Of a stretch of 64,000 nt of DNA, positions 3,531 to 59,886 are shown in pieces (the stretch's first letter is position 1; every line of letters starts with the position of its first letter). Position numbers and translations under genes: made by a program. Source of the stretch: an uncultured Bacteroidales bacterium (lineage in GTDB: Bacteria > Bacteroidota > Bacteroidia > Bacteroidales > F082); the NCBI GenBank assembly GCA_905234645.1, contig CAJOIS010000002.1, positions 59,326 through 123,325 on the forward strand, read 5' to 3'. The notes below the pieces were generated by a model. It was not told the DNA's origin. It ran no database searches and saw only the letters and a list, made by a program, of their open reading frames with translations.

Positions 3531-4460
3531 TTATCTTGTAGGTTTATGAAAAGTCTCATACAAATAATCATCAAAACCTTTCTCATTCCTATCCAACAAC
3601 ACAAAAGAAGAAAACTCTGACAACAAAATTCTCTCACCTTTATACCTCATAACACGAAGAGGGACATGGCCGTAATAGGAAGACCATTGCGAAAAGGTAC
3701 TGGGAGGACCTATAATATAATCGCACCTACTCAACGCATATAAATCAGTCATACAATCAGAAGGAGACAATGGTTTTATTTGAAACATCTCCACCATTTC
3801 ATCCTTTATAGCAAACGGCTCGTTAGAACAAACCAAAAAACGATGTTTCGCTTCACCCAGGTTCATTAACTGAATATGTATTTGTTGAATAGCATCCCAA
3901 TAGGTCTCATCATCAAAATACCATTTCCCTCCAAAATAAGTCTTATAATCACCTCTTCTTACATGTACTCCTACAGTTAACCCATCATAGGAATCGAATT
4001 CCTTTTCAACATTGGCCACATAACTCTCATCAGGCATAAACATATCCAAGACAGCGGCCCTCTCTTCTTCAATATACGATATGTCATTTCTATGTTCCCA
4101 GCCATCTATACAACAAATCCCTCTCTTATCATCAATTTCAGCCAAATCACCATTCACAACATATTTTGGATTATTCGCCAATCTAACCATTGCTCTCTCA
4201 AACTTATTTCCAAGGTTTTTCTTTGAACTTTTTGTAAAACACATCATAAGCCTCTCCAAACTTTGTCGGCCATCATTGTCTTTTGACAGCAAAAACTTCA
4301 CATATGGATTATGCAAAATATTGGGGAAGTAATCCAAATACTCTTTTCGCTCAAACAAAACATACACTCTCTTTTTGTTATGTATTGCATATGAGATTGT
4401 TGGAAGCAACGAAAACAATCTATTGCACAATTGACCACTATGTTTTATTTGAAGAATCAT
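3531..4460 (-). CDS. GT11-like (alpha-1,2-fucosyltransferase-type) glycosyltransferase
   Basis: Has an HVRRGDY motif (HxRRxD) and an N-terminal GQLCNRLF motif resembling GGLGNQLF. Very AT-rich. Confidence 0.6.
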   Translation of the reverse strand: MILQIKHSGQLCNRLFSLLPTISYAIHNKKRVYVLFERKEYLDYFPNILHNPYVKFLLSKDNDGRQSLERLMMCFTKSSKKNLGNKFERAMVRLANNPKYVVNGDLAEIDDKRGICCIDGWEHRNDISYIEEERAAVLDMFMPDESYVANVEKEFDSYDGLTVGVHVRRGDYKTYFGGKWYFDDETYWDAIQQIHIQLMNLGEAKHRFLVCSNEPFAIKDEMVEMFQIKPLSPSDCMTDLYALSRCDYIIGPPSTFSQWSSYYGHVPLRVMRYKGERILLSEFSSFVLLDRNEKGFDDYLYETFHKPTR

Positions 4461-17770: not shown

Positions 17771-19026
17771 TTTTGATCAACAAGACACATACTTCTTCCG
17801 AGCGGATAAAATCCCGTCTTACAGAAAGTGCTTTGTATTACTTTAAACTCGATTGCGTGCTGCACATAATCGATCATATTGCCACTGGTGTCAAAACATA
17901 CCAAATTGACAAAATACTCACCTGCTCTTAATGCAAAATCCGGACTAATGTCGATTCTTACCGTTGTGTCCCTAGTCAATGTTACCGAGGTCCCCAATAC
18001 GGATTTCGAGTCCATCCAAAGAGCACATTCATTTTGCATTGTATAAATGCTAACCCCAATTCTCGGATTTATGATTTTCTCTTTAGGTGATAATACAATT
18101 TCAATAGAGAGAGGGGTATCATCATTGATTGTGCTAGCGCCAGATAATCCATCAATCCGTATAGCAGTAACTCGGCATATACCACTTCCCTCTCGGTCAG
18201 TCCTATCATTTATAGCAACAGCATTATTTGTCGTCTCGCACCTCAGATAATAATCCACACATTCATCGGCTTTCCCCGTAAAATCAACAATACCGTTTTT
18301 CAATACGACGCCATTGATACACAAATTCCTTACCGCCGCCATATTGTGGCTTACAAACAGAACGGTCCTTCCCTCTCCCTTACTTACATCCTGCATCTTT
18401 CCAATAGCTTTTTTCTGGAACTCAGCATCACCCACGGCGAGAACTTCGTCTACAACAAGAATTTCAGGTTCAAGGTGAGCAGCTACAGCAAAACCAAGAC
18501 GCACCATCATACCACTAGAATAGCGCTTTACTGGCGTATCAATATAGCGTTCGCAGCCCGAGAAACCAACAATTTCATCCAGTTTACTCTTTATCTCCTG
18601 TTTGGTCATTCCCAAAATAGCACCATTCATATAAATATTTTCTCGTCCTGTCAGTTCCCCATGAAAGCCCGTACCTACTTCCAAAAGGCTAGCGATGCGG
18701 CCCTTTGCCCGAATCGTACCCGTGGTTGGAGCCGTTACTTTTGAAAGGAGTTTCAGCAATGTCGATTTTCCGGCTCCGTTCTTTCCGATAATGCCCACCA
18801 CATCGCCCTGTTCCACCTTGAAATCGATGTCCTTCAAGGCCCAAACATAGTCGCTATCAGCGGCTTTGGATCGATCGTTCACCGAACCCACCTTAAGAAA
18901 CGGGTCTTCCTTCCCCAAGATATTCATTTGCCACCATCTTTGCAGATCACTACTCAGTGTGCCACTGGAGACCAAGCCCAGACGGTACAACTTACTAACA
19001 TTATTGAATTCTATTGCTGTTGACAT
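17755..19026 (-). CDS. wzt: Polysaccharide ABC exporter ATP-binding protein Wzt with ~170-aa C-terminal extension
   Basis: Walker A GKNGAGKST, signature YSSGMMVRL, Walker B ILVVDE. Residues ~250-423 form an extra beta-rich domain (coordinates ~17758-18279). Confidence 0.9.
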   Translation of the reverse strand: MSTAIEFNNVSKLYRLGLVSSGTLSSDLQRWWQMNILGKEDPFLKVGSVNDRSKAADSDYVWALKDIDFKVEQGDVVGIIGKNGAGKSTLLKLLSKVTAPTTGTIRAKGRIASLLEVGTGFHGELTGRENIYMNGAILGMTKQEIKSKLDEIVGFSGCERYIDTPVKRYSSGMMVRLGFAVAAHLEPEILVVDEVLAVGDAEFQKKAIGKMQDVSKGEGRTVLFVSHNMAAVRNLCINGVVLKNGIVDFTGKADECVDYYLRCETTNNAVAINDRTDREGSGICRVTAIRIDGLSGASTINDDTPLSIEIVLSPKEKIINPRIGVSIYTMQNECALWMDSKSVLGTSVTLTRDTTVRIDISPDFALRAGEYFVNLVCFDTSGNMIDYVQHAIEFKVIQSTFCKTGFYPLGRSMCLVDQKWTFR

Positions 19027-33773: not shown

Positions 33774-33811
33774 GCCCTTCGACCCTTCGACAAGCTCAGG
33801 GCTCAGGGACC
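33774..33811 (+). repeat. CCCTTCGACA..GCTCAGGGACC repeat family, copy 1
   Basis: GCCCTTCGACCCTTCGACAAGCTCAGGGCTCAGGGACC. It abuts the stop of the CCG-domain gene. Confidence 0.7.
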
Positions 33812-34534
33812 TTAATCCCAGCCCGAGGCTAGCACATCTGCGATGTGGATCACCTTAATGGGCAAACCTTCCTTTTCGATATAGGCCTTTTGATGCATCA
33901 GGCAAGTCATGTCAGTTGAAACGATATACTCAGCCCCTGTGTTCATTGCATTCTTCACCTTGTGACCTGCCATGCCCGACGCCAAAGTCTCGTGGTTCAC
34001 CTCCAAGGAAAAATCGGCGCCACAGCACATGTCGTTCTGTTTCATCTCCACCAGTTCAAGGCCTCTCACTTTGGAGAGCAGTTGACGTGCTTCCTTGCCT
34101 AGACCCAAGCCTCTCAGGGCACTGCAGCTATCGTGAAACGTCACCTTATACGGGAACTCAGCTCCAAAATCGTCAAAATGGACCTTGTTGACCAAGAAGT
34201 CGGTCAACTCGTAGACATTAGCCACCATCCGCTTGAAATTCAAGTGATTGGCAGTATTGAAGAAAAGTTCAGGATAACGTTTCTTGATATAATGCACACA
34301 TGCCGCCGAGGGAGCAACCACTGGGCCATCGTATGAGAAATCGTTGAGGAACTTGTCGCCCAGCTCCTTAGCTTCTTCAAGGAAACCGGCATTGAAGGCA
34401 AAGCGACCGCAGCAGGTCTGCTCCGGGTTATACTCCACTTCAACGCCAGTACGTTCCAACACTTTCATCGTATTGGAAGCCACCCTTGGAAAGAATTGGT
34501 CAATAAGGCAGGGTACGAAAAGTTCAACTTTCAT
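33812..34534 (-). CDS. (Fe-S)-binding CCG-domain oxidoreductase subunit (LutA/GlpC family)
   Basis: Two CCG motifs (EQTCCGRF and NDMCCGADF). Confidence 0.65.
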   Translation of the reverse strand: MKVELFVPCLIDQFFPRVASNTMKVLERTGVEVEYNPEQTCCGRFAFNAGFLEEAKELGDKFLNDFSYDGPVVAPSAACVHYIKKRYPELFFNTANHLNFKRMVANVYELTDFLVNKVHFDDFGAEFPYKVTFHDSCSALRGLGLGKEARQLLSKVRGLELVEMKQNDMCCGADFSLEVNHETLASGMAGHKVKNAMNTGAEYIVSTDMTCLMHQKAYIEKEGLPIKVIHIADVLASGWD

Positions 34535-34613: not shown

Positions 34614-35846
34614 TTACTGCCGAACAGGCAAAAATTCAGCATCATCCCAGAAGGTGGGATAGGACTTCCCCACTACTTCGGGATGGTCGAAACTGACAGG
34701 GCCGGCGAGCATAGAGAGCGGAGCCAAAGCCATGACGATACGATGGTCATTATGAGCGCAAAAACGAATCGGACGGCTATCCAATTTCGCTAACTCGGTT
34801 TGCATAGCCCGCACCCGATCCGACTCTTTGAACAGAAGGTTGTCAAGCCCCGTGAAAGTGGCTGTAACACCCAATCCGGCACAAGTGGCTGCCATGGTCG
34901 GATAGAGGTCAGGATGCTGGGAGAAATCGAAACGTAAAGGGCGTTTCTCAAAGGGAATCCTTCTCAAAACGAGGGCATCGTTTTCAACAAACGTCCCCAC
35001 ACCCAGTTGGGTCATCCACTCAGCGATAATGGCGTCGCCTTGTAAGTTCGCGGTCCCTGAGCCTGTCGAAGGAGTCGAAGGGCCGCCTAATCCTTGCAAA
35101 CAGACCTCACATTCCTCACTAAACGCCGCCATCTCGTACCAATAAGAGGCTGCGCTCCAATCGGATTCTATTGTAAAATATTGTTTCTCATATGGTTTTG
35201 GCCTGACGACAACCAGTTTGTCTTGTCTTTTAACCTGTGCCGAAAAATGGCACAACATTTTGATGGTCATGTCGAGATAAGGAAGGGAACTGGGACTGCC
35301 AACAAGCTCCATTTCAAGGCCTTGAGGAAACAACGGCGCCGCCAAAAGCAGGGATGAGGCGAACTGGCTGCTTTGGGTCATATCCACTTTCACTTTACCA
35401 CCTTGAAGGGCTTTGCCATGGATCCGCAAAGGAAGGCATCCTTCTTTTTCAACATACTGAATGTCAGCGCCTAAAGCCAACAAAGCATCAACTAAAGGCT
35501 GGATAGGTCGCTGTTTCATGCGCTCGGCGCCAGTGAGGAGCCAGTCGCCTTCGTGACATGCCAGATAGGTGGCCATGAAACGAGCTGCGGTGCCGCAGTC
35601 GGCAATGTTGATGATTGATGTACCTTGTTGAGTTTTATGAATGGCTTTAGAAAGCATAGATTCCTTGCCACGCGCTGCCCTATGCTGGAATGACATGCAT
35701 TCTAAAGCCTCTGCCAAAACCATGGTATCACCCGAATCCGAAAGGTTCCGGAAATCAGGCGCAAAGCCACCATACGCCGCAATCATCAAGGCACGGTTGC
35801 TCTCGCTCTTGCTGGCGGGTAGGGTGATGTCGCAATGAAGTTTCAT
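34614..35846 (-). CDS. aroA: 3-phosphoshikimate 1-carboxyvinyltransferase (EPSP synthase) carrying two in-frame repeat-element insertions
   Basis: LPASKSESNRALMIAA, DCGTAARF, RMKQRPI, SSQFASSLLLAAP, KESDR and NDHRIVMA motifs. See the repeats at 35052-35084 and 35643-35709. Confidence 0.9.
   Translation of the reverse strand: MKLHCDITLPASKSESNRALMIAAYGGFAPDFRNLSDSGDTMVLAEALECMSFQHRAARGKESMLSKAIHKTQQGTSIINIADCGTAARFMATYLACHEGDWLLTGAERMKQRPIQPLVDALLALGADIQYVEKEGCLPLRIHGKALQGGKVKVDMTQSSQFASSLLLAAPLFPQGLEMELVGSPSSLPYLDMTIKMLCHFSAQVKRQDKLVVVRPKPYEKQYFTIESDWSAASYWYEMAAFSEECEVCLQGLGGPSTPSTGSGTANLQGDAIIAEWMTQLGVGTFVENDALVLRRIPFEKRPLRFDFSQHPDLYPTMAATCAGLGVTATFTGLDNLLFKESDRVRAMQTELAKLDSRPIRFCAHNDHRIVMALAPLSMLAGPVSFDHPEVVGKSYPTFWDDAEFLPVRQ
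35052..35084 (-). repeat. CCCTTCGACA..GCTCAGGGACC repeat family, copy 2 (inside the aroA CDS)
   Basis: The minus strand reads GGCCCTTCGACTCCTTCGACAGGCTCAGGGACC, translated as GPSTPSTGSGT. Confidence 0.7.
35643..35709 (+). repeat. ATAGAT/ATGACAT palindromic element, copy E1 (inside the aroA CDS)
   Basis: GGCTTTAGAAAGC-ATAGAT-TCC-22nt-GGA-ATGACAT-GCATTCTAAAGCC. Confidence 0.85.
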
Positions 35847-37968: not shown

Positions 37969-39522
37969 TTACTTCGCCGTGAGGTGCGTCACTGGGATAA
38001 GCATCTCATTCATCGAGATGCCGCCATGCTGGAAAGTGTTGCGGTAATAGCTGACGTAATAGTTGTAGTTGTTGGGATAGGCAAAGAAGTCGCTCTTGCC
38101 TGCGAAAACATAGGCCGTACTCAGGTTGACCTTCGGCAAAAAGATCTTCTCCGGGTCTTTCACCTCAAACACTTCTTTCGGATTGTATTTCAAGTTCTTG
38201 CCGTACTTATAACGCAAATTGGTGTTCACTTCGCGGTCGCCCAAAATGCGGACAGGGTCTTTCACATATGTGGAGCCATGGTCGGTGGTGATGATCATGT
38301 CACAGCCTTTTTCTGCGATGAAGCGCATCATGTCGAAGAGGCTGGAATGCTCGAACCACGAGTACATCAGCGAGCGGTAGGCTTCCTCGTCGTCGGCCAA
38401 TTCGCGGATGATTTCCATCTCGGTGCGGGCATGGGAAAGCATGTCAACGAAATTGTACACGATGACATTCAACTTGTTCTGCATCAGGTTCGACATCTGC
38501 TCAAAGAGTTTTTTGCCCGCCTGCAGGTTCAGCACCTTATTATAAGAGTACTTGATGTTCTTTCCGAAACGCTTCAGCTGTTCGCCTAGCAGCTCGCCCT
38601 CAAACTGGTTCTTGGTGCCTTCGTCCTCCTCGTCCACCCACCACTGACGATAGCGACGGCGGATTTCGAGCGGCATCAATCCAGCGAAGAGGGAATTACG
38701 AGCGTATTGTGTGGTGGTAGGCAGGATGCTGTAGTACACATCGTCGGCCTCCACATGGAAATAGTTTTCAACCAGTGGTTGAATGGCTTTCCATTGATCG
38801 TAGCGCAGGTTATCAATGACGATGAGGAATAACGGCTTATCGCCGCCATCAAGGCGTGGAATCACCTTGTCGCGCACCACTGTATGCGACATCACAGGCT
38901 TTTCGGAACGTCCTTGAATCCAATCCACGTAATTTCGTTCAATGTAACGCGTGAACTGCGTGTTGGCTTCTTGCTTTTGGTCGGCGAGGATGCCCTTGAT
39001 GCCTTCGTCAGTCGACTTTTGCAGTTCCAACTCCCAGCGCACGAGTTTCTTATACAGGGCGATCCATTCGTCGAAGTCGAGGTTGTCGTTCAGGTCCATG
39101 CTGATCTGTCGGAACTCCTGCTGGTATCGCATCGACGACTTCTCGTCGCGTAACGTGCGATTCTCGAGATTACGTTTCAGCGACAGCAAAATCTGGTTCG
39201 GGTTCACAGGCTTAATAAGGTAATCCGCTATGTTGGAGCCGATGGCGTCTTCCATGATGCGTTCCTCCTCGCTCTTGGTGATCATCACCACGGGGAGGTT
39301 GGGATATTCGCGCTTGATGACTTCGAGCGCCTCGATGCCCGAGATGCCCGGCATCTGCTCGTCTAAGAAAACAATGTCGAAATGACGTTGGCGCACAAGG
39401 TCGATGGCGTCGGAGCCGTTGTTGGCTGTAACTACCTCATAGCCTTTTTGTTCCAGAAACATGATATGGGGCTTCAGGAGATCAATCTCGTCGTCGGCCC
39501 AAAGTATTGTCGTTTTGTCCAT
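37969..39522 (-). CDS. porX: Response-regulator receiver plus PglZ domain protein (T9SS regulator PorX-type)
   Basis: ILWADDEIDLL..IVFLDEQMPG receiver domain and a C-terminal PglZ/alkaline-phosphatase-like region. Its size (517 aa) matches PorX. Confidence 0.8.
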   Translation of the reverse strand: MDKTTILWADDEIDLLKPHIMFLEQKGYEVVTANNGSDAIDLVRQRHFDIVFLDEQMPGISGIEALEVIKREYPNLPVVMITKSEEERIMEDAIGSNIADYLIKPVNPNQILLSLKRNLENRTLRDEKSSMRYQQEFRQISMDLNDNLDFDEWIALYKKLVRWELELQKSTDEGIKGILADQKQEANTQFTRYIERNYVDWIQGRSEKPVMSHTVVRDKVIPRLDGGDKPLFLIVIDNLRYDQWKAIQPLVENYFHVEADDVYYSILPTTTQYARNSLFAGLMPLEIRRRYRQWWVDEEDEGTKNQFEGELLGEQLKRFGKNIKYSYNKVLNLQAGKKLFEQMSNLMQNKLNVIVYNFVDMLSHARTEMEIIRELADDEEAYRSLMYSWFEHSSLFDMMRFIAEKGCDMIITTDHGSTYVKDPVRILGDREVNTNLRYKYGKNLKYNPKEVFEVKDPEKIFLPKVNLSTAYVFAGKSDFFAYPNNYNYYVSYYRNTFQHGGISMNEMLIPVTHLTAK

Positions 39523-39592: not shown

Positions 39593-39659
39593 GGCTTTTA
39601 AAAGCATAGATTCCCTCTCTCGCACAAACCCTCGCAGGAATGACATACTTTTAAAAGCC
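39593..39659 (+). repeat. ATAGAT/ATGACAT palindromic element, copy E2
   Basis: GGCTTTTAAAAGC-ATAGAT-TCC-22nt-GGA-ATGACAT-ACTTTTAAAAGCC. Same 67-nt length as E1. Confidence 0.85.
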
Positions 39660-39682: not shown

Positions 39683-39738
39683 AGCCTTCGATGTCATTCC
39701 AGCAGAGGAAGTGGGTAGGCTGGAATCTATCGAAGGCT
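39683..39738 (-). repeat. ATAGAT/ATGACAT palindromic element, copy E3 (inverted orientation)
   Basis: AGCCTTCG-ATGTCAT-TCC-21nt-GGA-ATCTAT-CGAAGGCT. Confidence 0.85.
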
Positions 39739-39789
39739 GGTCACGCGATGACATGCTTTCTGAAAGCTGCTTATACGGTTATAAACGCC

Positions 39790-39847
39790 CGACCTTCGAT
39801 GTCATTCCGACAGGGGAAGTGGGCTGGCTGGAATCTATTGGAGGTCG
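39790..39847 (-). repeat. ATAGAT/ATGACAT palindromic element, copy E4 (inverted orientation)
   Basis: CGACCTTCG-ATGTCAT-TCC-21nt-GGA-ATCTAT-TGGAGGTCG. It is part of a ~105-bp tandem duplication with E3. Confidence 0.85.
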
Positions 39848-39881
39848 GGCGATCATACGTATTGCTTTCTGAAAAAAACAC

Positions 39882-39889
39882 TATTTTTG
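39882..39889 (+). promoter_or_regulatory. -7 box (TATTTTTG) for the HD-domain gene
   Basis: Matches TAnnTTTG, 18 nt upstream of ATG 39908. Confidence 0.5.
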
Positions 39890-39907
39890 CAGCAAAATTC
39901 ATGGCCC

Positions 39908-41146
39908 ATGGCAAGCGCATCCAACAAAAAGAAGATCTTCAACGACCCCATCTATGGCTTCGTCAGCATCCCCGACGAGCTGCACTTCGACATCATCGAG
40001 CACCCTTATTTCCAACGCCTTAGACGCATCAAGCAGGTCAGTTTGACCAACATGGTGTATCCCGGCGCTAACCACACTCGCTTCACCCACAGCCTTGGCA
40101 CCATGCACCTCATGCGGCATGCCATACAGCTACTGCGAGGAAAGGGTTACGACATAACCGACGAAGAATTGGAAGCTGCCTCGTTGGCCATCCTGCTCCA
40201 CGACAGCGGACACGGGCCATTCTCGCACACATTGGAGAACAGCATTGTTCAGGGCGTCTCGCACGAGGAGTTGTCGTTGATGGTGATGCAGAAGTTCAAC
40301 GAGATTCACGACGGACGGCTCGATTTGGCCATCCAACTATTCAAGGGGGAATACGAGAAGGGCTTCTTGAGCAAACTCATTTCCAGCCAGTTGGACGTGG
40401 ACCGCATCGACTACCTAAAGCGCGACAGTTTCTTCACTGGTGTGGCAGAGGGCAGCGTCAACGCAGAAAGACTGTTGGAGATGGTTGAAGTGGTCGACAA
40501 CGAGTTGGCCATCGAAGCCAAGGGTATCTATTCCGTGGAGAGCTTCATTGTGGCGCGCCGCATCATGTACTGGCAGGTGTACATGCACAAAGCGGTGTTG
40601 AGTGCAGAATACATGTTACGCAACATCCTGAAACGTGCCAAAATGCTCAGCCAAGAGCGCGACTTGTTCGCCACCCCGGCCCTGTCGTTCTTTCTGAAAA
40701 ACCAGAATCCTTTTGCGAACGGCAACGATCCCGATTACGTCCTGGACAAGTTCTGCCAGTTGGACGACTACGATGTGATGACGGCAGTGAAAGCCTGGCG
40801 CGACGACAAAGACCGCGTGCTTTCCGAGCTTTGCAGGCGCCTGACCGACAGGCATTTGTTTAAAATAGAGATGCGGGAAGGGGAATTTGAGCCCCAATAT
40901 ATTGAGGACATCCGTAAAAAGATCGCCCAATACTATGGATGGACGTTGGAGGAGGCGGACTTTGCCTTGTTACAGGGCATTTCCTCGAACCACGCCTACC
41001 ACCCCAAGAAGCCCGCCATCAACATCCTTTACAAGGACGGCACGATGAAGGACATCAGCGAGGCCTCCGATCAACTGAACATCTCGGTGCTGAAACAGCC
41101 CGTGGTGAAGCATTTTATTTGCTATCCGAAGGAGCTGCTGGTATAA
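39908..41146 (+). CDS. HD-domain dNTP triphosphohydrolase-like phosphohydrolase
   Basis: NDPIYGFVSIP, RFTHSLGTMHL and LLHDSGHGPFSH. The ATG at 39908 is chosen because the track TTG (39887) lies inside the -7 box. Confidence 0.8.
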   Translation: MASASNKKKIFNDPIYGFVSIPDELHFDIIEHPYFQRLRRIKQVSLTNMVYPGANHTRFTHSLGTMHLMRHAIQLLRGKGYDITDEELEAASLAILLHDSGHGPFSHTLENSIVQGVSHEELSLMVMQKFNEIHDGRLDLAIQLFKGEYEKGFLSKLISSQLDVDRIDYLKRDSFFTGVAEGSVNAERLLEMVEVVDNELAIEAKGIYSVESFIVARRIMYWQVYMHKAVLSAEYMLRNILKRAKMLSQERDLFATPALSFFLKNQNPFANGNDPDYVLDKFCQLDDYDVMTAVKAWRDDKDRVLSELCRRLTDRHLFKIEMREGEFEPQYIEDIRKKIAQYYGWTLEEADFALLQGISSNHAYHPKKPAINILYKDGTMKDISEASDQLNISVLKQPVVKHFICYPKELLV

Positions 41147-41197: not shown

Positions 41198-42304
41198 TTA
41201 TTTATCTTTGCCCATCAATGAGCCCGTCCTAAAGTGCAGATTATCCACTGCCTTTCGACCTACCGGCTTGGAAGGCGTATTGCTGACACGCTTCAAATAT
41301 GCCTTCTCAATGCAATTCTGATAATACTCGTTTTCGTACACAAAAACATCGTCACTTATTTCCTTGATCTGAAGCCTAAAAGCACGTCCATCATCCATAT
41401 TTAAAAACAGGGCACTACTCTCTTCATCAAGGACATATGCATAGCTTGACACCAAAACCGTATCGGGACAAACAATGTGGGTTTCATAAGATTCAGTTTC
41501 CTCGTTCCAATCCAACCATAATTCTTCAATGGAACTATCGCGCATTTCACCAGAATTGTCTTCCCTAAAATACATTTGGATGCCGTTGTCGGTGGAATAA
41601 GGTTCGAATAAGAATGTACTCATTGAGGCTGCAATAGGATTACCTGCATAGTCAGTATTGTAATATTCAAACTTTTCAACACCCCAAACGCCAATGATAA
41701 GATTCTCTGGCTGCTCAACAATAACAGTTACGACATATTCAGCTTGAGAGCCATCCTCAGCGGTCACGGTATATGTTACAGGTTGGGAAAAGTCAGTAAC
41801 ATAATCCGAACAAGGCACAACACTATCATCGTCAGAAACAATGATGGTGGGGACTAAAACTGTAACATCTGTGCCATAAGGCACCGTGGCTTCTATTTCT
41901 TTCGTGTCTTCATTAATAACCGCATCGATATTCAAAGACACAAACCGAAATGCAAGAATTCTTTTTTCGCTGTTTTTTTCATTAGTAACAACTGCTAAAT
42001 AAACCGATTGCGACCCATCTTCCGCTGTCACCGTGTAAGTCACTGGATTTGTAAAATCCATAGGCTCACCAGACAGCGGGCTAATCGTAGCCTTATCCGA
42101 AATGGTGATAATGGGCGTCAAATTGGTGAGATCAGTTCCATAAGGCATTTCCGCTTCAATCCTTCCATCGGAGCATATATCGGCCGTCACATCAGGATTA
42201 GCAAACTGAAATGAGAGGATTTCTTTTTCGCTGCTCTTTTTTTGGCAACTCGATAATACCATTAGAATTGCCAAAATGACGATTGAATTGATCGCTTTTT
42301 TCAT
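41198..42304 (-). CDS. Lipoprotein with two tandem Ig-like repeats and a C-terminal domain
   Basis: Lipobox LSSC. There are two ~85-aa repeats, each ending PVTYTVTAEDGSQ..Y. Confidence 0.6.
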   Translation of the reverse strand: MKKAINSIVILAILMVLSSCQKKSSEKEILSFQFANPDVTADICSDGRIEAEMPYGTDLTNLTPIITISDKATISPLSGEPMDFTNPVTYTVTAEDGSQSVYLAVVTNEKNSEKRILAFRFVSLNIDAVINEDTKEIEATVPYGTDVTVLVPTIIVSDDDSVVPCSDYVTDFSQPVTYTVTAEDGSQAEYVVTVIVEQPENLIIGVWGVEKFEYYNTDYAGNPIAASMSTFLFEPYSTDNGIQMYFREDNSGEMRDSSIEELWLDWNEETESYETHIVCPDTVLVSSYAYVLDEESSALFLNMDDGRAFRLQIKEISDDVFVYENEYYQNCIEKAYLKRVSNTPSKPVGRKAVDNLHFRTGSLMGKDK

Positions 42305-42348: not shown

Positions 42349-42402
42349 GCAGGTATAGATCCCAAGCCTACACACATGCCAGCGTTGGGATGACACGCCT
42401 GC
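42349..42402 (+). repeat. ATAGAT/ATGACAY palindromic element, copy E5
   Basis: GCAGGT-ATAGAT-CCCAA-19nt-TTGGG-ATGACAC-GCCTGC, followed by a partial duplicate, TGACATGCCTGC. Confidence 0.75.
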
Positions 42403-42414
42403 TGACATGCCTGC

Positions 42415-42873
42415 TTAGGACCTCTGATTCATCGCTTTAGCCCGGCGCTTCGAGTCCTCCATCACCTCCAAAGCCTGTTGTTGTAAGAATTTCTCTTCTT
42501 CCGTTTCAGGCGCAAGTGTGATGCCATGGGGCTTGGAGTGGTGATTTTCATCAAGATAGGAGAAGGTGGCGAAACCGTCAGCGGCGATTTTTTCGGGCTC
42601 GCGGCTGCGGTACATTTTCGTGTAGACAGTGAGGGTGCTTCGCCCAGCGGCAATCACCTTGCTCTCGAAAGTGACGATGTCGCCGGCGAAAATCGGGAAC
42701 TTGAAGTCGATGCCGTGGAGCACGAGCAGGACGGTGTCCTTCGTATCAACATACTGCGCCACAGCAAAATAGGAACTCTCTAAAAACCACTCCGAGCAAC
42801 GACCAGCGAAGAAGGTCTGATGGTGGTTGAGGTCAGCGAGTTTGATCAGTCTTTGGGAATAGGTTGCTTTCAT
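42415..42873 (-). CDS. Hotdog-fold acyl-CoA thioesterase
   Basis: Its length and the HHQTFFAGRCSEW..VTFESKVIAAGRSTL pattern are typical of YciA/4HBT-type thioesterases. Confidence 0.7.
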   Translation of the reverse strand: MKATYSQRLIKLADLNHHQTFFAGRCSEWFLESSYFAVAQYVDTKDTVLLVLHGIDFKFPIFAGDIVTFESKVIAAGRSTLTVYTKMYRSREPEKIAADGFATFSYLDENHHSKPHGITLAPETEEEKFLQQQALEVMEDSKRRAKAMNQRS

Positions 42874-58909: not shown

Positions 58910-59491
58910 ATGAAGAAAACAGGTATCATTATCGCCATTATTGTGGGTGCCATCCTCATCTGGGGTGTTGGTACCTACAACGGCCTCGTGAAGAAGCAGG
59001 AGAACATGACCAAGGCTTGGGGACAGGTGGAGAACGTCTATCAGCGTCGTGCCGATCTGGTGCCGAACCTCGTCGCTTTGGTGAAGAACTATGCCGAATA
59101 CGAGCAAAGCACGCTCATCTCCATCACGGAAGCGCGTGCCCAAAAAGCGGCCAACACCAGCGTCAACATAGAGAGCTACACGGAGAGCGACCTGCAGAAC
59201 TACCAAGCTGCACAAGACGAACTAGGCGAGTCGCTGAATCGTCTCATCGTCTCGATCGAAAACTACCCCGACTTAAAGGCAAGCGAGAACTACCTCACCT
59301 TGCAGGCACAGTTGGCAGGCTGCGAGAACCGCATCATGACGGAGCGTGAACGCTTCAACGAGGCGGCCAAGGTCTACAACCAAAGCGTCCGCAAATTCCC
59401 GAGCAGCATCATTGCCAACATGTTTGGTTTCGAGAAGCGGCCTTATTTTGAGGCTCAAGCTGGGGCCGATACAGCGCCGGAGACGTTTTAA
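58910..59491 (+). CDS. lemA: LemA family protein
   Basis: N-terminal TM segment plus YNGLVKKQENMTKAWGQVENVYQRRADLVPNLV. Confidence 0.85.
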   Translation: MKKTGIIIAIIVGAILIWGVGTYNGLVKKQENMTKAWGQVENVYQRRADLVPNLVALVKNYAEYEQSTLISITEARAQKAANTSVNIESYTESDLQNYQAAQDELGESLNRLIVSIENYPDLKASENYLTLQAQLAGCENRIMTERERFNEAAKVYNQSVRKFPSSIIANMFGFEKRPYFEAQAGADTAPETF

Positions 59492-59511: not shown

Positions 59512-59558
59512 GAATCGACCGCCTATAGATCCCCAAGGGGATGACATAGGCGGTCGAT
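59512..59558 (+). repeat. ATAGAT/ATGACAT palindromic element, copy E6 (minimal form)
   Basis: AATCGACCGCCT-ATAGAT-CCCC-aa-GGGG-ATGACAT-AGGCGGTCGATT, between the convergent lemA and DUF3467 genes. Confidence 0.85.
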
Positions 59559-59580
59559 TTCGGTAATGTCTATAATAGTT

Positions 59581-59886
59581 TTATGCCTGAGCTGTTGGGG
59601 CGCCCATCGAAAACGGAGCGATGCCGCCGCCGTCGGTAATGGTGCCGAACTGCTGCTCGTATTTGGCGATGTTGTCGGCCAAAGCCTTATAGAGACGCTT
59701 GGCGTTCAAGGGGTTCATAATCACTCTCGAACGGACCTTGGCCTTAGGCGTGCCAGGCATCATCTGCGCAAAGTCAACGATGAACTCATTCGGTGAGTGG
59801 GTGATAATGGCGAGATTGGAGTAAGTGCCCTCAGCCACCTCGTCGCTGATCTCGATATTCAACTGATTTTTTTGGTTGTTTTCCAT
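59581..59886 (-). CDS. DUF3467-like protein
   Basis: YSNLAIITHSPNEFIVDF motif. Its position immediately downstream of rpoC matches other Bacteroidota. Confidence 0.65.
   Translation of the reverse strand: MENNQKNQLNIEISDEVAEGTYSNLAIITHSPNEFIVDFAQMMPGTPKAKVRSRVIMNPLNAKRLYKALADNIAKYEQQFGTITDGGGIAPFSMGAPTAQA

Follow-up and report, generated by a model that had tools for sequence, protein, structure and literature searches.

A palindromic element in six copies

A 64,000-nt stretch of contig CAJOIS010000002.1 from an uncultured Bacteroidales bacterium (GTDB lineage F082), in the following called the window, contains six copies (c1 to c6) of a palindromic element in which an outer and an inner helix surround the boxes ATAGAT and ATGACA. 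Here we describe these copies, their relatives in other genomes, and a small GIY-YIG nuclease gene found among the relatives. Contigs identical to the window are present in the ENA metagenome ERZ27234819.

The shortest copy, c6 (AATCGACCGCCTATAGATCCCCAAGGGGATGACATAGGCGGTCGATT; plus strand), is located between two convergent genes. The 47-nt hairpin noticed by a first-pass annotation at 59512–59558 does exist, although it lies one base further to the right. Its layout is AATCGACCGCCT-ATAGAT-CCCCAAGGGG-ATGACAT-AGGCGGTCGATT, and its minus strand reads A-TGTC-ATCCCC-TT-GGGGAT-CTA-T. Folded as single-stranded DNA (ssDNA), c6 has an outer stem of 14 bp, an AG/GAC internal loop, an inner stem of 5 bp (ATCCC/GGGAT), and a loop of 4 nt (CAAG); alternatively, the inner stem can be extended to a maximum of 6 bp, leaving a loop of 2 nt. 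The folding energy is −18.8 kcal/mol for either strand (z = −6.9 for plus and −7.9 for minus). We also considered a k-turn or loop-E fold of the internal loop and rejected it, since working by hand gave a bulge of 1 nt instead of 3 and a canonical k-turn in no register.

The pattern ATAGAT-N(5–35)-ATGACA matched the window seven times, while 0.28 matches were expected and seven were reached in 0 of 100 shuffles. Both helices were present in six of the seven matches. This agrees with the number of copies annotated before, and the outer and inner arms quoted for them were correct. The seventh match (4082–4109, minus strand) is without helices and is probably due to chance. A relaxed scan of the window with up to three mismatches revealed no copies beyond the six, in all of which the TGTC on the strand opposite to ATGACA is invariant. 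The copies, the parts of c6, and two partial copies are listed below.

35643–35709, plus strand: c1, within aroA (open reading frame [ORF] 34614–35846, minus strand), antisense read-through
39593–39659, plus strand: c2, in the divergent spacer between the PglZ response-regulator gene (37969–39522, minus) and the HD-domain gene (39887–41146, plus)
39683–39738, minus strand: c3, in the PglZ/HD divergent spacer, in the orientation opposite to c2
39748–39765, plus strand: partial copy, ATGACAT box and right arm GCTTTCTGAAA, left half missing
39780–39857, minus strand: c4, in the PglZ/HD divergent spacer, outer stem with two mismatches beside the core
39864–39874: right-arm fragment, among c2 to c4
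42349–42402, plus strand: c5, between the DUF5018 gene (41198–42304, minus) and a 152-aa ORF (42415–42873, minus)
59513–59559, plus strand: c6, minimal element, in the spacer of the convergent lemA (58910–59491, plus) and DUF3467 gene (59581–59886, minus)
59513–59526 and 59546–59559: outer stem arms of c6
59525–59530 and 59541–59547: ATAGAT and ATGACAT boxes of c6

Copy c1 lies within a gene, so the copies are not all intergenic as first thought. Copy c5 has a second box with a final C (ATGACAC), an inner stem of ATCCCAA/TTGGGAT, and the weakest fold among the six (z = −1.5). The DUF5018 gene next to c5 is missing from the orthologous region of the red-deer metagenome-assembled genome (MAG) L049, in which the HD gene and the 152-aa ORF are direct neighbors; c5 is thus at the edge of a gene-content indel. 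The two partial copies are remnants of rearranged or duplicated copies and suggest nested insertion or template-switch rearrangements in the PglZ/HD spacer.

Rfam gave no match in the window at the gathering score and nothing relevant at E ≤ 5 in the region of 35 to 43 kb. A terminator scan detected no terminator-like site, and the hairpin is without a T-run. No transposase domain was found in the annotated stretches (~4.4–25.6 kb and 37.8–58.6 kb), in line with the earlier remark that the window lacks a transposase.

The stems covary and the element is DNA

Scanning GTDB genomes with ATAGATTCC-N(15–30)-GGAATGACAT yielded at least 119 stretches. Most of those listed belong to MAGs of Bacteroidales from the rumen or the ruminant gut (RUG, RGIG, Ca. 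Limimorpha), and as many as 6 copies were found within 8 kb. IMG/VR viral contigs contained zero copies. Clustering of 423 neighboring ORFs returned only orthologous housekeeping sets as recurrent neighbors.

We applied a covariation test to an alignment of 103 distinct copies, taken from the genomes of related rumen Bacteroidales and with loops trimmed to a fixed length. Paired cells amounted to 80%, in comparison to 61% in shuffled alignments (80% was reached in 0 of 500) and 36 to 42% when the partner column was slid. The seven outer-stem pairs beside the core were 88 to 97% paired and used four to six pair types each, three to four of them common, while the Y-R pair of the inner stem was T-A in 85 copies, C-G in 17, and T.G in 1. 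The proposed covariation of both helices was thereby confirmed. The TGTC, AT..AT, and C columns were fixed by the collecting pattern itself, and the same holds for the invariance of AT-YCC..GGR-AT and the following C (alignment columns 17–20 and 33–37).

RNA families usually have many G.U pairs. In this alignment, G.T (G.U) pairs made up only ~1% of the paired stem cells, the signature of a DNA palindrome and not of an RNA helix. Furthermore, the fold is equally stable on both strands, and the orientation relative to the flanking genes is without bias (22 ++, 17 −−, 9 convergent, and 9 divergent). Because of these properties, and because copies lie inside long ORFs, we conclude that the element is DNA, not RNA.

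The long apical loop is not arbitrary, being C-rich (36 to 46% C) with a conserved center, CGCAC(A). In most of 236 cores the loop comprises 19 to 25 nt, and the minimal core of 22 nt was present in 4 only. Such minimal cores were found again in other genomes, which supports the earlier view that the loop is dispensable. Most cores belong to the length classes 37/40/43 and 38/41/44 nt, and among 163 cores of the Bacteroidales type, the length was 1 mod 3 in 95, 2 mod 3 in 59, and 0 mod 3 in 9. Coding constraint during evolution may have left this 3-nt spacing. Avoidance of stop codons in the loop was modest (main frame open in 0.62, compared to 0.55 of shuffled loops).

Many copies form −/+ doublets of ~160 nt with a conserved spacer, and the outer arms group into families such as GGCTTCAGAAAGC and CCGCCTCCC. 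Arms of these two types are the two halves of a 159-nt doublet: at 2283–2441 of contig L135, a unit consisting of a minus copy, a conserved 36-nt spacer, and a plus copy is tandemly duplicated in comparison to the near-identical contig L136. The duplication in one of the two contigs indicates that arrays also grow by unequal recombination, besides insertion.

The core resembles CGTC-tagged repeats and the target of SsnA

The other strand of the core has the sequence A-TGTC-AT-TCC..GGA-AT-CTA-T. The CGTC-tagged superfamily of repetitive extragenic palindromic (REP) sequences is defined by a CGTC tag, often TGTC, a stem starting with AT, and a 3-nt tail; it takes in Neisseria dRS3 and the Rickettsia repeats RPE-4 and RPE-6, has Bacteroidetes and intragenic members, and is without an associated transposase or REP-associated tyrosine transposase (RAYT) (PMC3733652). 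The tag (TGTC), the AT-starting stem, and a tail (CTA) are all present in our element. The stem of 8 to 9 bp and the loop of 4 to 5 nt typical of the CGTC class were not matched, since the stem here has 5 to 7 bp and the loops mostly 19 to 25 nt. With its 5-bp stem and 4-nt loop in the ssDNA fold, c6 is the copy nearest to the canonical geometry.

The Neisseria repeat NTS (CGTC-ATTCCCGCG..CGCGGGAAT-CYRG; CGTCATTCCCGCGMAVGCGGGAATCYRG) is bound and cut by SsnA, a 94-aa single-domain GIY-YIG nuclease whose gene is flanked by NTS copies (PMC11893778). SsnA acts only on ssDNA and on only one strand, does not bind RNA, and leaves duplex uncut; the key base for binding is the C after the palindrome, and cleavage depends on the three bases before it (PMC11893778). 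The NTS loop can be removed or extended, its identity being unneeded for cleavage by SsnA in vitro, and the Neisseria system restricts incoming transforming ssDNA (PMC11893778). The bases read by SsnA, the GTC of the tag and the C after the palindrome, coincide with invariant positions of our element. Of the Ssn-related motif (SRM) features, it has the HGTC-type tag (TGTC) directly 5′ of the palindrome, and the AT-starting palindrome directly followed by C, which is the G of ATAGAT on the strand first annotated.

Core matches in other phyla were canonical members of the CGTC class, arranged as inverted doublets of ~130 to 143 nt, for example in Caldilineaceae and Anaerolineales with TGTCATTCCCGC..GCGGGAATCCA. 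In Chloroflexota, a phylum other than that of Neisseria, such doublets (L034 6863–7005; L004 3359–3485) are repeated within genomes and are near-identical to the Neisseria NTS.

Arrays of the element surround a small GIY-YIG gene

Using the GIY-YIG ORF of locus L124 as a tblastn query, we retrieved a 92-aa homologue in L090 (rumen MAG RUG13515). Its ORF (110–388) lies between two copies of the element in inverted orientation, with hairpin ends 32 nt upstream and ~11 nt downstream. A metagenome scan with the L090 protein returned 80 loci. In 14 of 15 metagenome loci whose proteins are 79 to 94% identical, the gene lay within arrays of the element, with at most 9 copies per 1.3 kb. When L090 was included, copies were present within 200 nt downstream in 15 of 16 loci and on both sides in 10 of 16. 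The density was 70 copies per 10 kb up to 200 nt from the gene, 14.8 at 200 to 700 nt, and 1.06 beyond 700 nt, in comparison to 0.94 in the window. This near-gene enrichment of ~70-fold was seen in relatives rather than in the window's own genome. The gene-plus-repeat unit occurred in at least 6 to 7 unrelated genomic contexts.

The 92-aa protein consists of PF01541 only (residues 4–76; E = 2e-15), and NCBIfam had no family for it. Residues Y7, Y18, R28, H32, and E65 were identical wherever the alignment covered the position (78 to 80 of the 80 homologues), with one homologue having C at position 7. Y7, Y18, and E65 correspond to Y6, Y17, and E64, the catalytic residues of Neisseria meningitidis SsnA (PMC11893778). 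Judged by its sequence, the gene physically tied to the element thus encodes a predicted single-domain GIY-YIG nuclease of the Ssn kind. In the CDD, Ssn is defined by cd10448, while cd10456 is UPF0213, another small GIY-YIG family.

Different hairpins flank the more distant homologues (50 to 58% identity), which come from soils, sediments, and guts; the frame (T/C)GTC-AT..AT-C is retained in those upstream, and its inverse in those downstream. At 1700–2525 of L124, a 119-aa GIY-YIG gene (2033–2392) is flanked by short hairpins of the type CTCC-ATTCCC-GCA-GGGAAT-CTG and their inverses. The same genome also carries the long-loop element in aroA, and there may be two Ssn-repeat pairs in one genome.

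The element is inserted in frame into genes and is polymorphic

Of 116 copies, 26 (~22%) are located within ORFs that have at least 60 codons on each side. All of them preserve the frame, the insert being 57 to 66 nt (19 to 22 aa); 20 are translated as ATA GAT TCC ... AAT GAC ATG (I-D-S ... N-D-M), and 5 are antisense. The aroA gene of the window encodes EPSP synthase (PDB matches down to 2e-52) and reads through c1 in antisense (..AEAL-ECMSFQHRAARGKESMLSKAIH-KTQQG..). Compared to the empty-site DNA of L123, the window has a net gain of 63 nt with GC at both junctions. Among close aroA homologues (70 to 97% identity), the site was empty in P0023, P0076, P0063, P0085, P0059, P0062, and P0117, and filled as in the window in P0001, P0003 to P0005, P0013, and P0026. 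P0065 and P0100 represent independent fills (LPFIDSRQRTNPCRNDI), one orientation being reversed among the independent fills. Thus, a single loop of the aroA product exists in an empty, an antisense-filled, and a sense-filled state among close homologues.

In the AlphaFold model of the window's AroA, pLDDT was below 50 at the N-terminal residues 1–10 and at residues 53–66 and 254–269. Residues 53–66 are the element-encoded peptide, and 254–269 correspond to a second, unrelated repeat insertion, so both inserts are predicted to be tolerated disordered loops. The second repeat, CCCTTCGAC..CCTTCGACAGGCTCAGGGACC, is found at 35045–35085 (minus strand, inside aroA) and 33775–33815 (plus strand). In aroA it is translated in frame as GPSTPSTGSGT, where close homologues have LRQAQGSGT or lack an insert; it seems to be a further family of coding-tolerant repeats.

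A similar polymorphism was detected in aroB (DHQ synthase), where a +/− dimer of ~40 aa near the N terminus, absent from the window, has GC at every junction. The proteins with the dimer comprise 372 to 377 aa, those of the window, L123, and L124 334 aa; the dimer is translated as ..IDSRQRT..WNDM..ESMS..GS(I/M)LS... The aroB genes with the dimer are the following.

L031 4079–5206: aroB with dimer
L056 3455–4588: aroB with dimer
L058 696–1820: aroB with dimer
L122 2883–4001: aroB with dimer

Furthermore, a GT39-like membrane glycosyltransferase of 619 aa in L074 contains two copies. The HD-PglZ spacer is empty in L123, has one copy (orthologous to c2) in L122, and has three copies plus the fragments in the window. 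GC flanked both sides of all four reconstructed insertions (aroA antisense, aroA sense, and two aroB-dimer units), and the termini of 101 copies were GG..CC in 19, GC..GC in 18, and others in 64. In summary, these results indicate that the repeat is mobile or was so recently.

Excision at the RNA level, as in introns with a bulge-helix-bulge, was tried as an explanation and rejected. Of 90 copies outside long ORFs, each deleted with 49 boundary variants, only 7 yielded ORFs extending more than 110 codons to each side, which is chance level, and the in-gene copies all keep the frame.

Elsewhere in the window, positions ~500–29400 are a long run of minus-strand genes with no copy of the element. 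Pfam calls at ~4.4–25.6 kb comprise family-2 and family-1 glycosyltransferases, a UDP-galactopyranose mutase, a Wzt-type ABC transporter, an MBOAT protein, and a KAS III-like protein; the predicted functions mark this run as a polysaccharide biosynthesis locus.

Discussion

With a probability of about 0.75, the hairpin c6 is a copy of a palindromic DNA repeat of the CGTC/TGTC-tagged REP class that, in uncultured rumen Bacteroidales, would be recognized by an Ssn-type GIY-YIG nuclease. The recognition is proposed by analogy with SsnA. The element would act as ssDNA, in the form 5′-TGTC-AT-YCC..loop..GGR-AT-C-TA-3′ on the strand complementary to the one first annotated. The cognate single-domain nuclease of the Ssn family would be encoded elsewhere in the genome, inside a repeat cluster, and we infer that the window's own genome carries such a gene. 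If the Bacteroidales enzyme binds and cuts the hairpin like SsnA, it would bind the AT-flanked stem together with the C just 3′ of it, and cut a few bases 5′ of the GTC tag, at a position that in this element is in an arm of the outer palindrome. The stems would need only pairing, and the loop would be free to lengthen. If tag and C are read in the manner of SsnA, the "invariant internal loop" described in the first-pass annotation would be the tag and tail read by the enzyme. Nuclease activity plus host repair would then be behind the spread or maintenance of the repeat. Since NTS and SsnA restrict transforming ssDNA, conjugative ssDNA entry would be an obvious candidate target in Bacteroidales.

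Several observations weigh against this interpretation. The published SRM string, HGTCWYN(0–2)YYVSBRHN(0–5)WNVSBRGN(0–2)RNCYNB, matched none of the six window copies because their stem is too short and their loop too long; its sole match in the window was an unrelated site at 18300 (minus strand). The fit is therefore one of architecture and not to the published regular expression. Nor does the string recover the GTC-AT..AT-C hairpins beside 65 distant GIY-YIG homologues (L139 to L204), so that Ssn-associated motifs are more diverse than the string allows for. The PDB entries nearest to the 92-aa protein are UPF0213 proteins (1zg2, E = 4e-8; 1ywl, E = 1e-6). A tblastn search of the whole 64-kb window revealed no GIY-YIG homologue, and the closest retrieved MAG is ~86% identical, so the enzyme had to be taken from relatives, which have ~80 to 86% nucleotide identity to the window. 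Moreover, the predicted cut site is in the base-paired outer arm, whereas SsnA leaves duplex uncut. Finally, GIY-YIG nucleases form no covalent intermediate, and a transposition mechanism is therefore not obvious.

The first-pass annotation had thought of a REP/RAYT-like hairpin or, alternatively, of a structured RNA module. The REP-like palindromic nature held, and the RAYT partner did not. For a classical REP or REPIN moved by a RAYT (an HUH Y1 transposase), ATAG would be a GTAG-like guide tetranucleotide 5′ of the hairpin. The ATAG foot is indeed immediately 5′ of the hairpin, the −/+ doublets of ~160 nt with their conserved spacer are REPIN-like, and Bacteroidetes possess RAYT subclass 2.6, which is flanked by "atypical secondary structures" (PMC6006769). 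However, an HUH..Y regular expression found nothing in six frames of ~0.94 Mb of related loci, which cover part of each genome; no subclass-2.6 structure in the consulted part of the supplement of PMC6006769 resembled the element; the element has the tag and tail of the CGTC class, for which there is no RAYT association (PMC3733652); and the gene embedded in the repeats is GIY-YIG. We assign this possibility a low probability. A slight one is left for a miniature inverted-repeat transposable element (MITE) derived from an insertion sequence, whose outer palindrome would be terminal inverted repeats and whose DDE transposase would duplicate GC. The GC on both sides of the four reconstructed insertions and the outer-arm families GGCTTCAGAAAGC and CCGCCTCCC fit this idea. 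Yet variable outer arms around an invariant core are the reverse of terminal repeats read by a transposase, no full-length insertion sequence with these ends was present in ~1.2 Mb, and the GC termini are not universal among the 101 copies. The GC is equally explained by insertion at the center of a GC or GGCC-like site (between G and C), without duplication.

The strong stem covariation around an invariant internal loop and the several copies in transcribed spacers would also suit an RNA module selected as RNA, in which a protein-binding internal loop with sheared G.A pairs would serve processing or stability; hairpins at 3′ ends could stabilize mRNA incidentally. Against this stand the rarity of G.U pairs (~1%), both orientations relative to genes, copies translated through in either orientation, and the lack of a matching Rfam family; furthermore, SsnA binds no RNA (PMC11893778). 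The RNA module, as first suggested with its sheared G.A pairs, is therefore considered highly improbable. Scarcely credible is the idea that Bacteroidales hosts have selected the copies as transcription terminators or attenuators, the boxes belonging to a factor-binding site. The position of c6 between convergent genes and the very stable hairpins of the c1 type are what a terminator would show, but the T-run is absent, the scan gave no terminator-like site, three copies lie between divergent genes and thus upstream of both, and ~22% of the copies are inside ORFs, including essential genes, where termination would be lethal. In this respect the annotation, which had favored a protein-recognized hairpin over a plain terminator, agrees with our proposal of an Ssn-type target, the protein being suggested by the likeness to SsnA.

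A stronger version of the Ssn proposal is that the element spreads actively as an Ssn-dependent, non-autonomous mobile element, with insertion between G and C at GC or GGCC-like targets (GC on both sides), and with the C-rich, stop-poor strand and the 3-nt length classes as adaptation to coding sequence. We consider this version possible but rather unlikely.

The closest known system is NTS/SRM with SsnA (PMC11893778). Shared with it are the (C/T)GTC tag, the ATTCC..GGAAT palindrome with C directly after, tens to hundreds of copies per genome, a small GIY-YIG gene flanked on both sides by repeats (92 aa here, 94 aa in Neisseria), a dispensable loop, and the catalytic Tyr/Tyr/Glu at equivalent positions. 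Differences are the stem (5 to 7 bp here, 8 to 12 there), the usual loop (19 to 25 nt and C-rich here, 4 to 8 nt there), and the additional outer palindrome of 6 to 20 bp, which encloses tag and tail so that these look like an internal loop. In addition, about one in five copies here is in frame within a gene, and the host, rumen Bacteroidales, is unnamed in the main text of that study. With the CGTC repeats including dRS3, the element has in common the CGTC/TGTC tag, the A-T and T-A start of the stem, a 3-nt tail, mostly head-to-head dimers, intragenic units, occurrence in Bacteroidetes, and the lack of a RAYT; those repeats differ by an 8- to 9-bp stem, a 4- to 5-nt loop, and a CCA tail (PMC3733652), as opposed to the CTA tail, shorter stem, long loop, and outer palindrome described here.

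Like the RPE of Rickettsia, the element is a palindromic insert in frame that leaves genes functional, adds a short surface-loop peptide, and is also found between genes. RPE, however, are 100 to 150 bp long, unrelated in overall sequence, and belong to obligate intracellular alpha-proteobacteria, while the element inserts 57 to 66 nt (19 to 22 aa) in free-living gut anaerobes, with a strongly preferred frame (ATA GAT TCC, I-D-S ... R-N-D-M). With REP/REPIN and RAYT (TnpA-REP), it shares the nature of an ssDNA-hairpin repeat with a conserved unpaired foot, doublets and clusters, covarying stems, and a single-copy enzyme gene that sits among its own repeats. The difference is in the enzyme, an HUH tyrosine nuclease in one case and GIY-YIG in the other, and in the foot (GTAG versus TGTC/ATAG); a RAYT was not found in the ~0.94 Mb. 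Known already, then, are CGTC/NTS/SRM repeats with an Ssn nuclease and, from Rickettsia, palindromic elements in frame. New are the geometry (short stem, long C-rich loop of typically 21 to 22 nt, outer palindrome that makes tag and tail an internal loop), the failure of the SRM string, the host lineage, and the many in-frame genic copies with one preferred frame.

CGTC-tagged repeats such as dRS3, RPE-4, RPE-6, and many others were described earlier without a dedicated enzyme, and Ssn nucleases were tied to them only in 2025, mainly in Proteobacteria. Our analysis extends this pairing of repeat and nuclease to uncultured members of the rumen Bacteroidales, whose motif is structurally distinct and of a kind that the published SRM search string overlooks. 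Ssn enzymes have been proposed as ssDNA-cutting tools, for which the element defines a new candidate specificity. Protein families in rumen metagenomes are both inflated and fragmented by the repeats, which also give enzymes extra, predicted disordered loops of 19 to 22 aa. The natural insertion polymorphisms in aroA, aroB, and the GT39-like glycosyltransferase gene could reveal the target choice and the copying mechanism. If active, Ssn-dependent spread were true, a GIY-YIG ssDNA nuclease would be remodeling surface loops of essential enzymes in a dominant rumen lineage, and there would be a first handle on the multiplication of CGTC/NTS-type repeats, the RPE of Rickettsia included.

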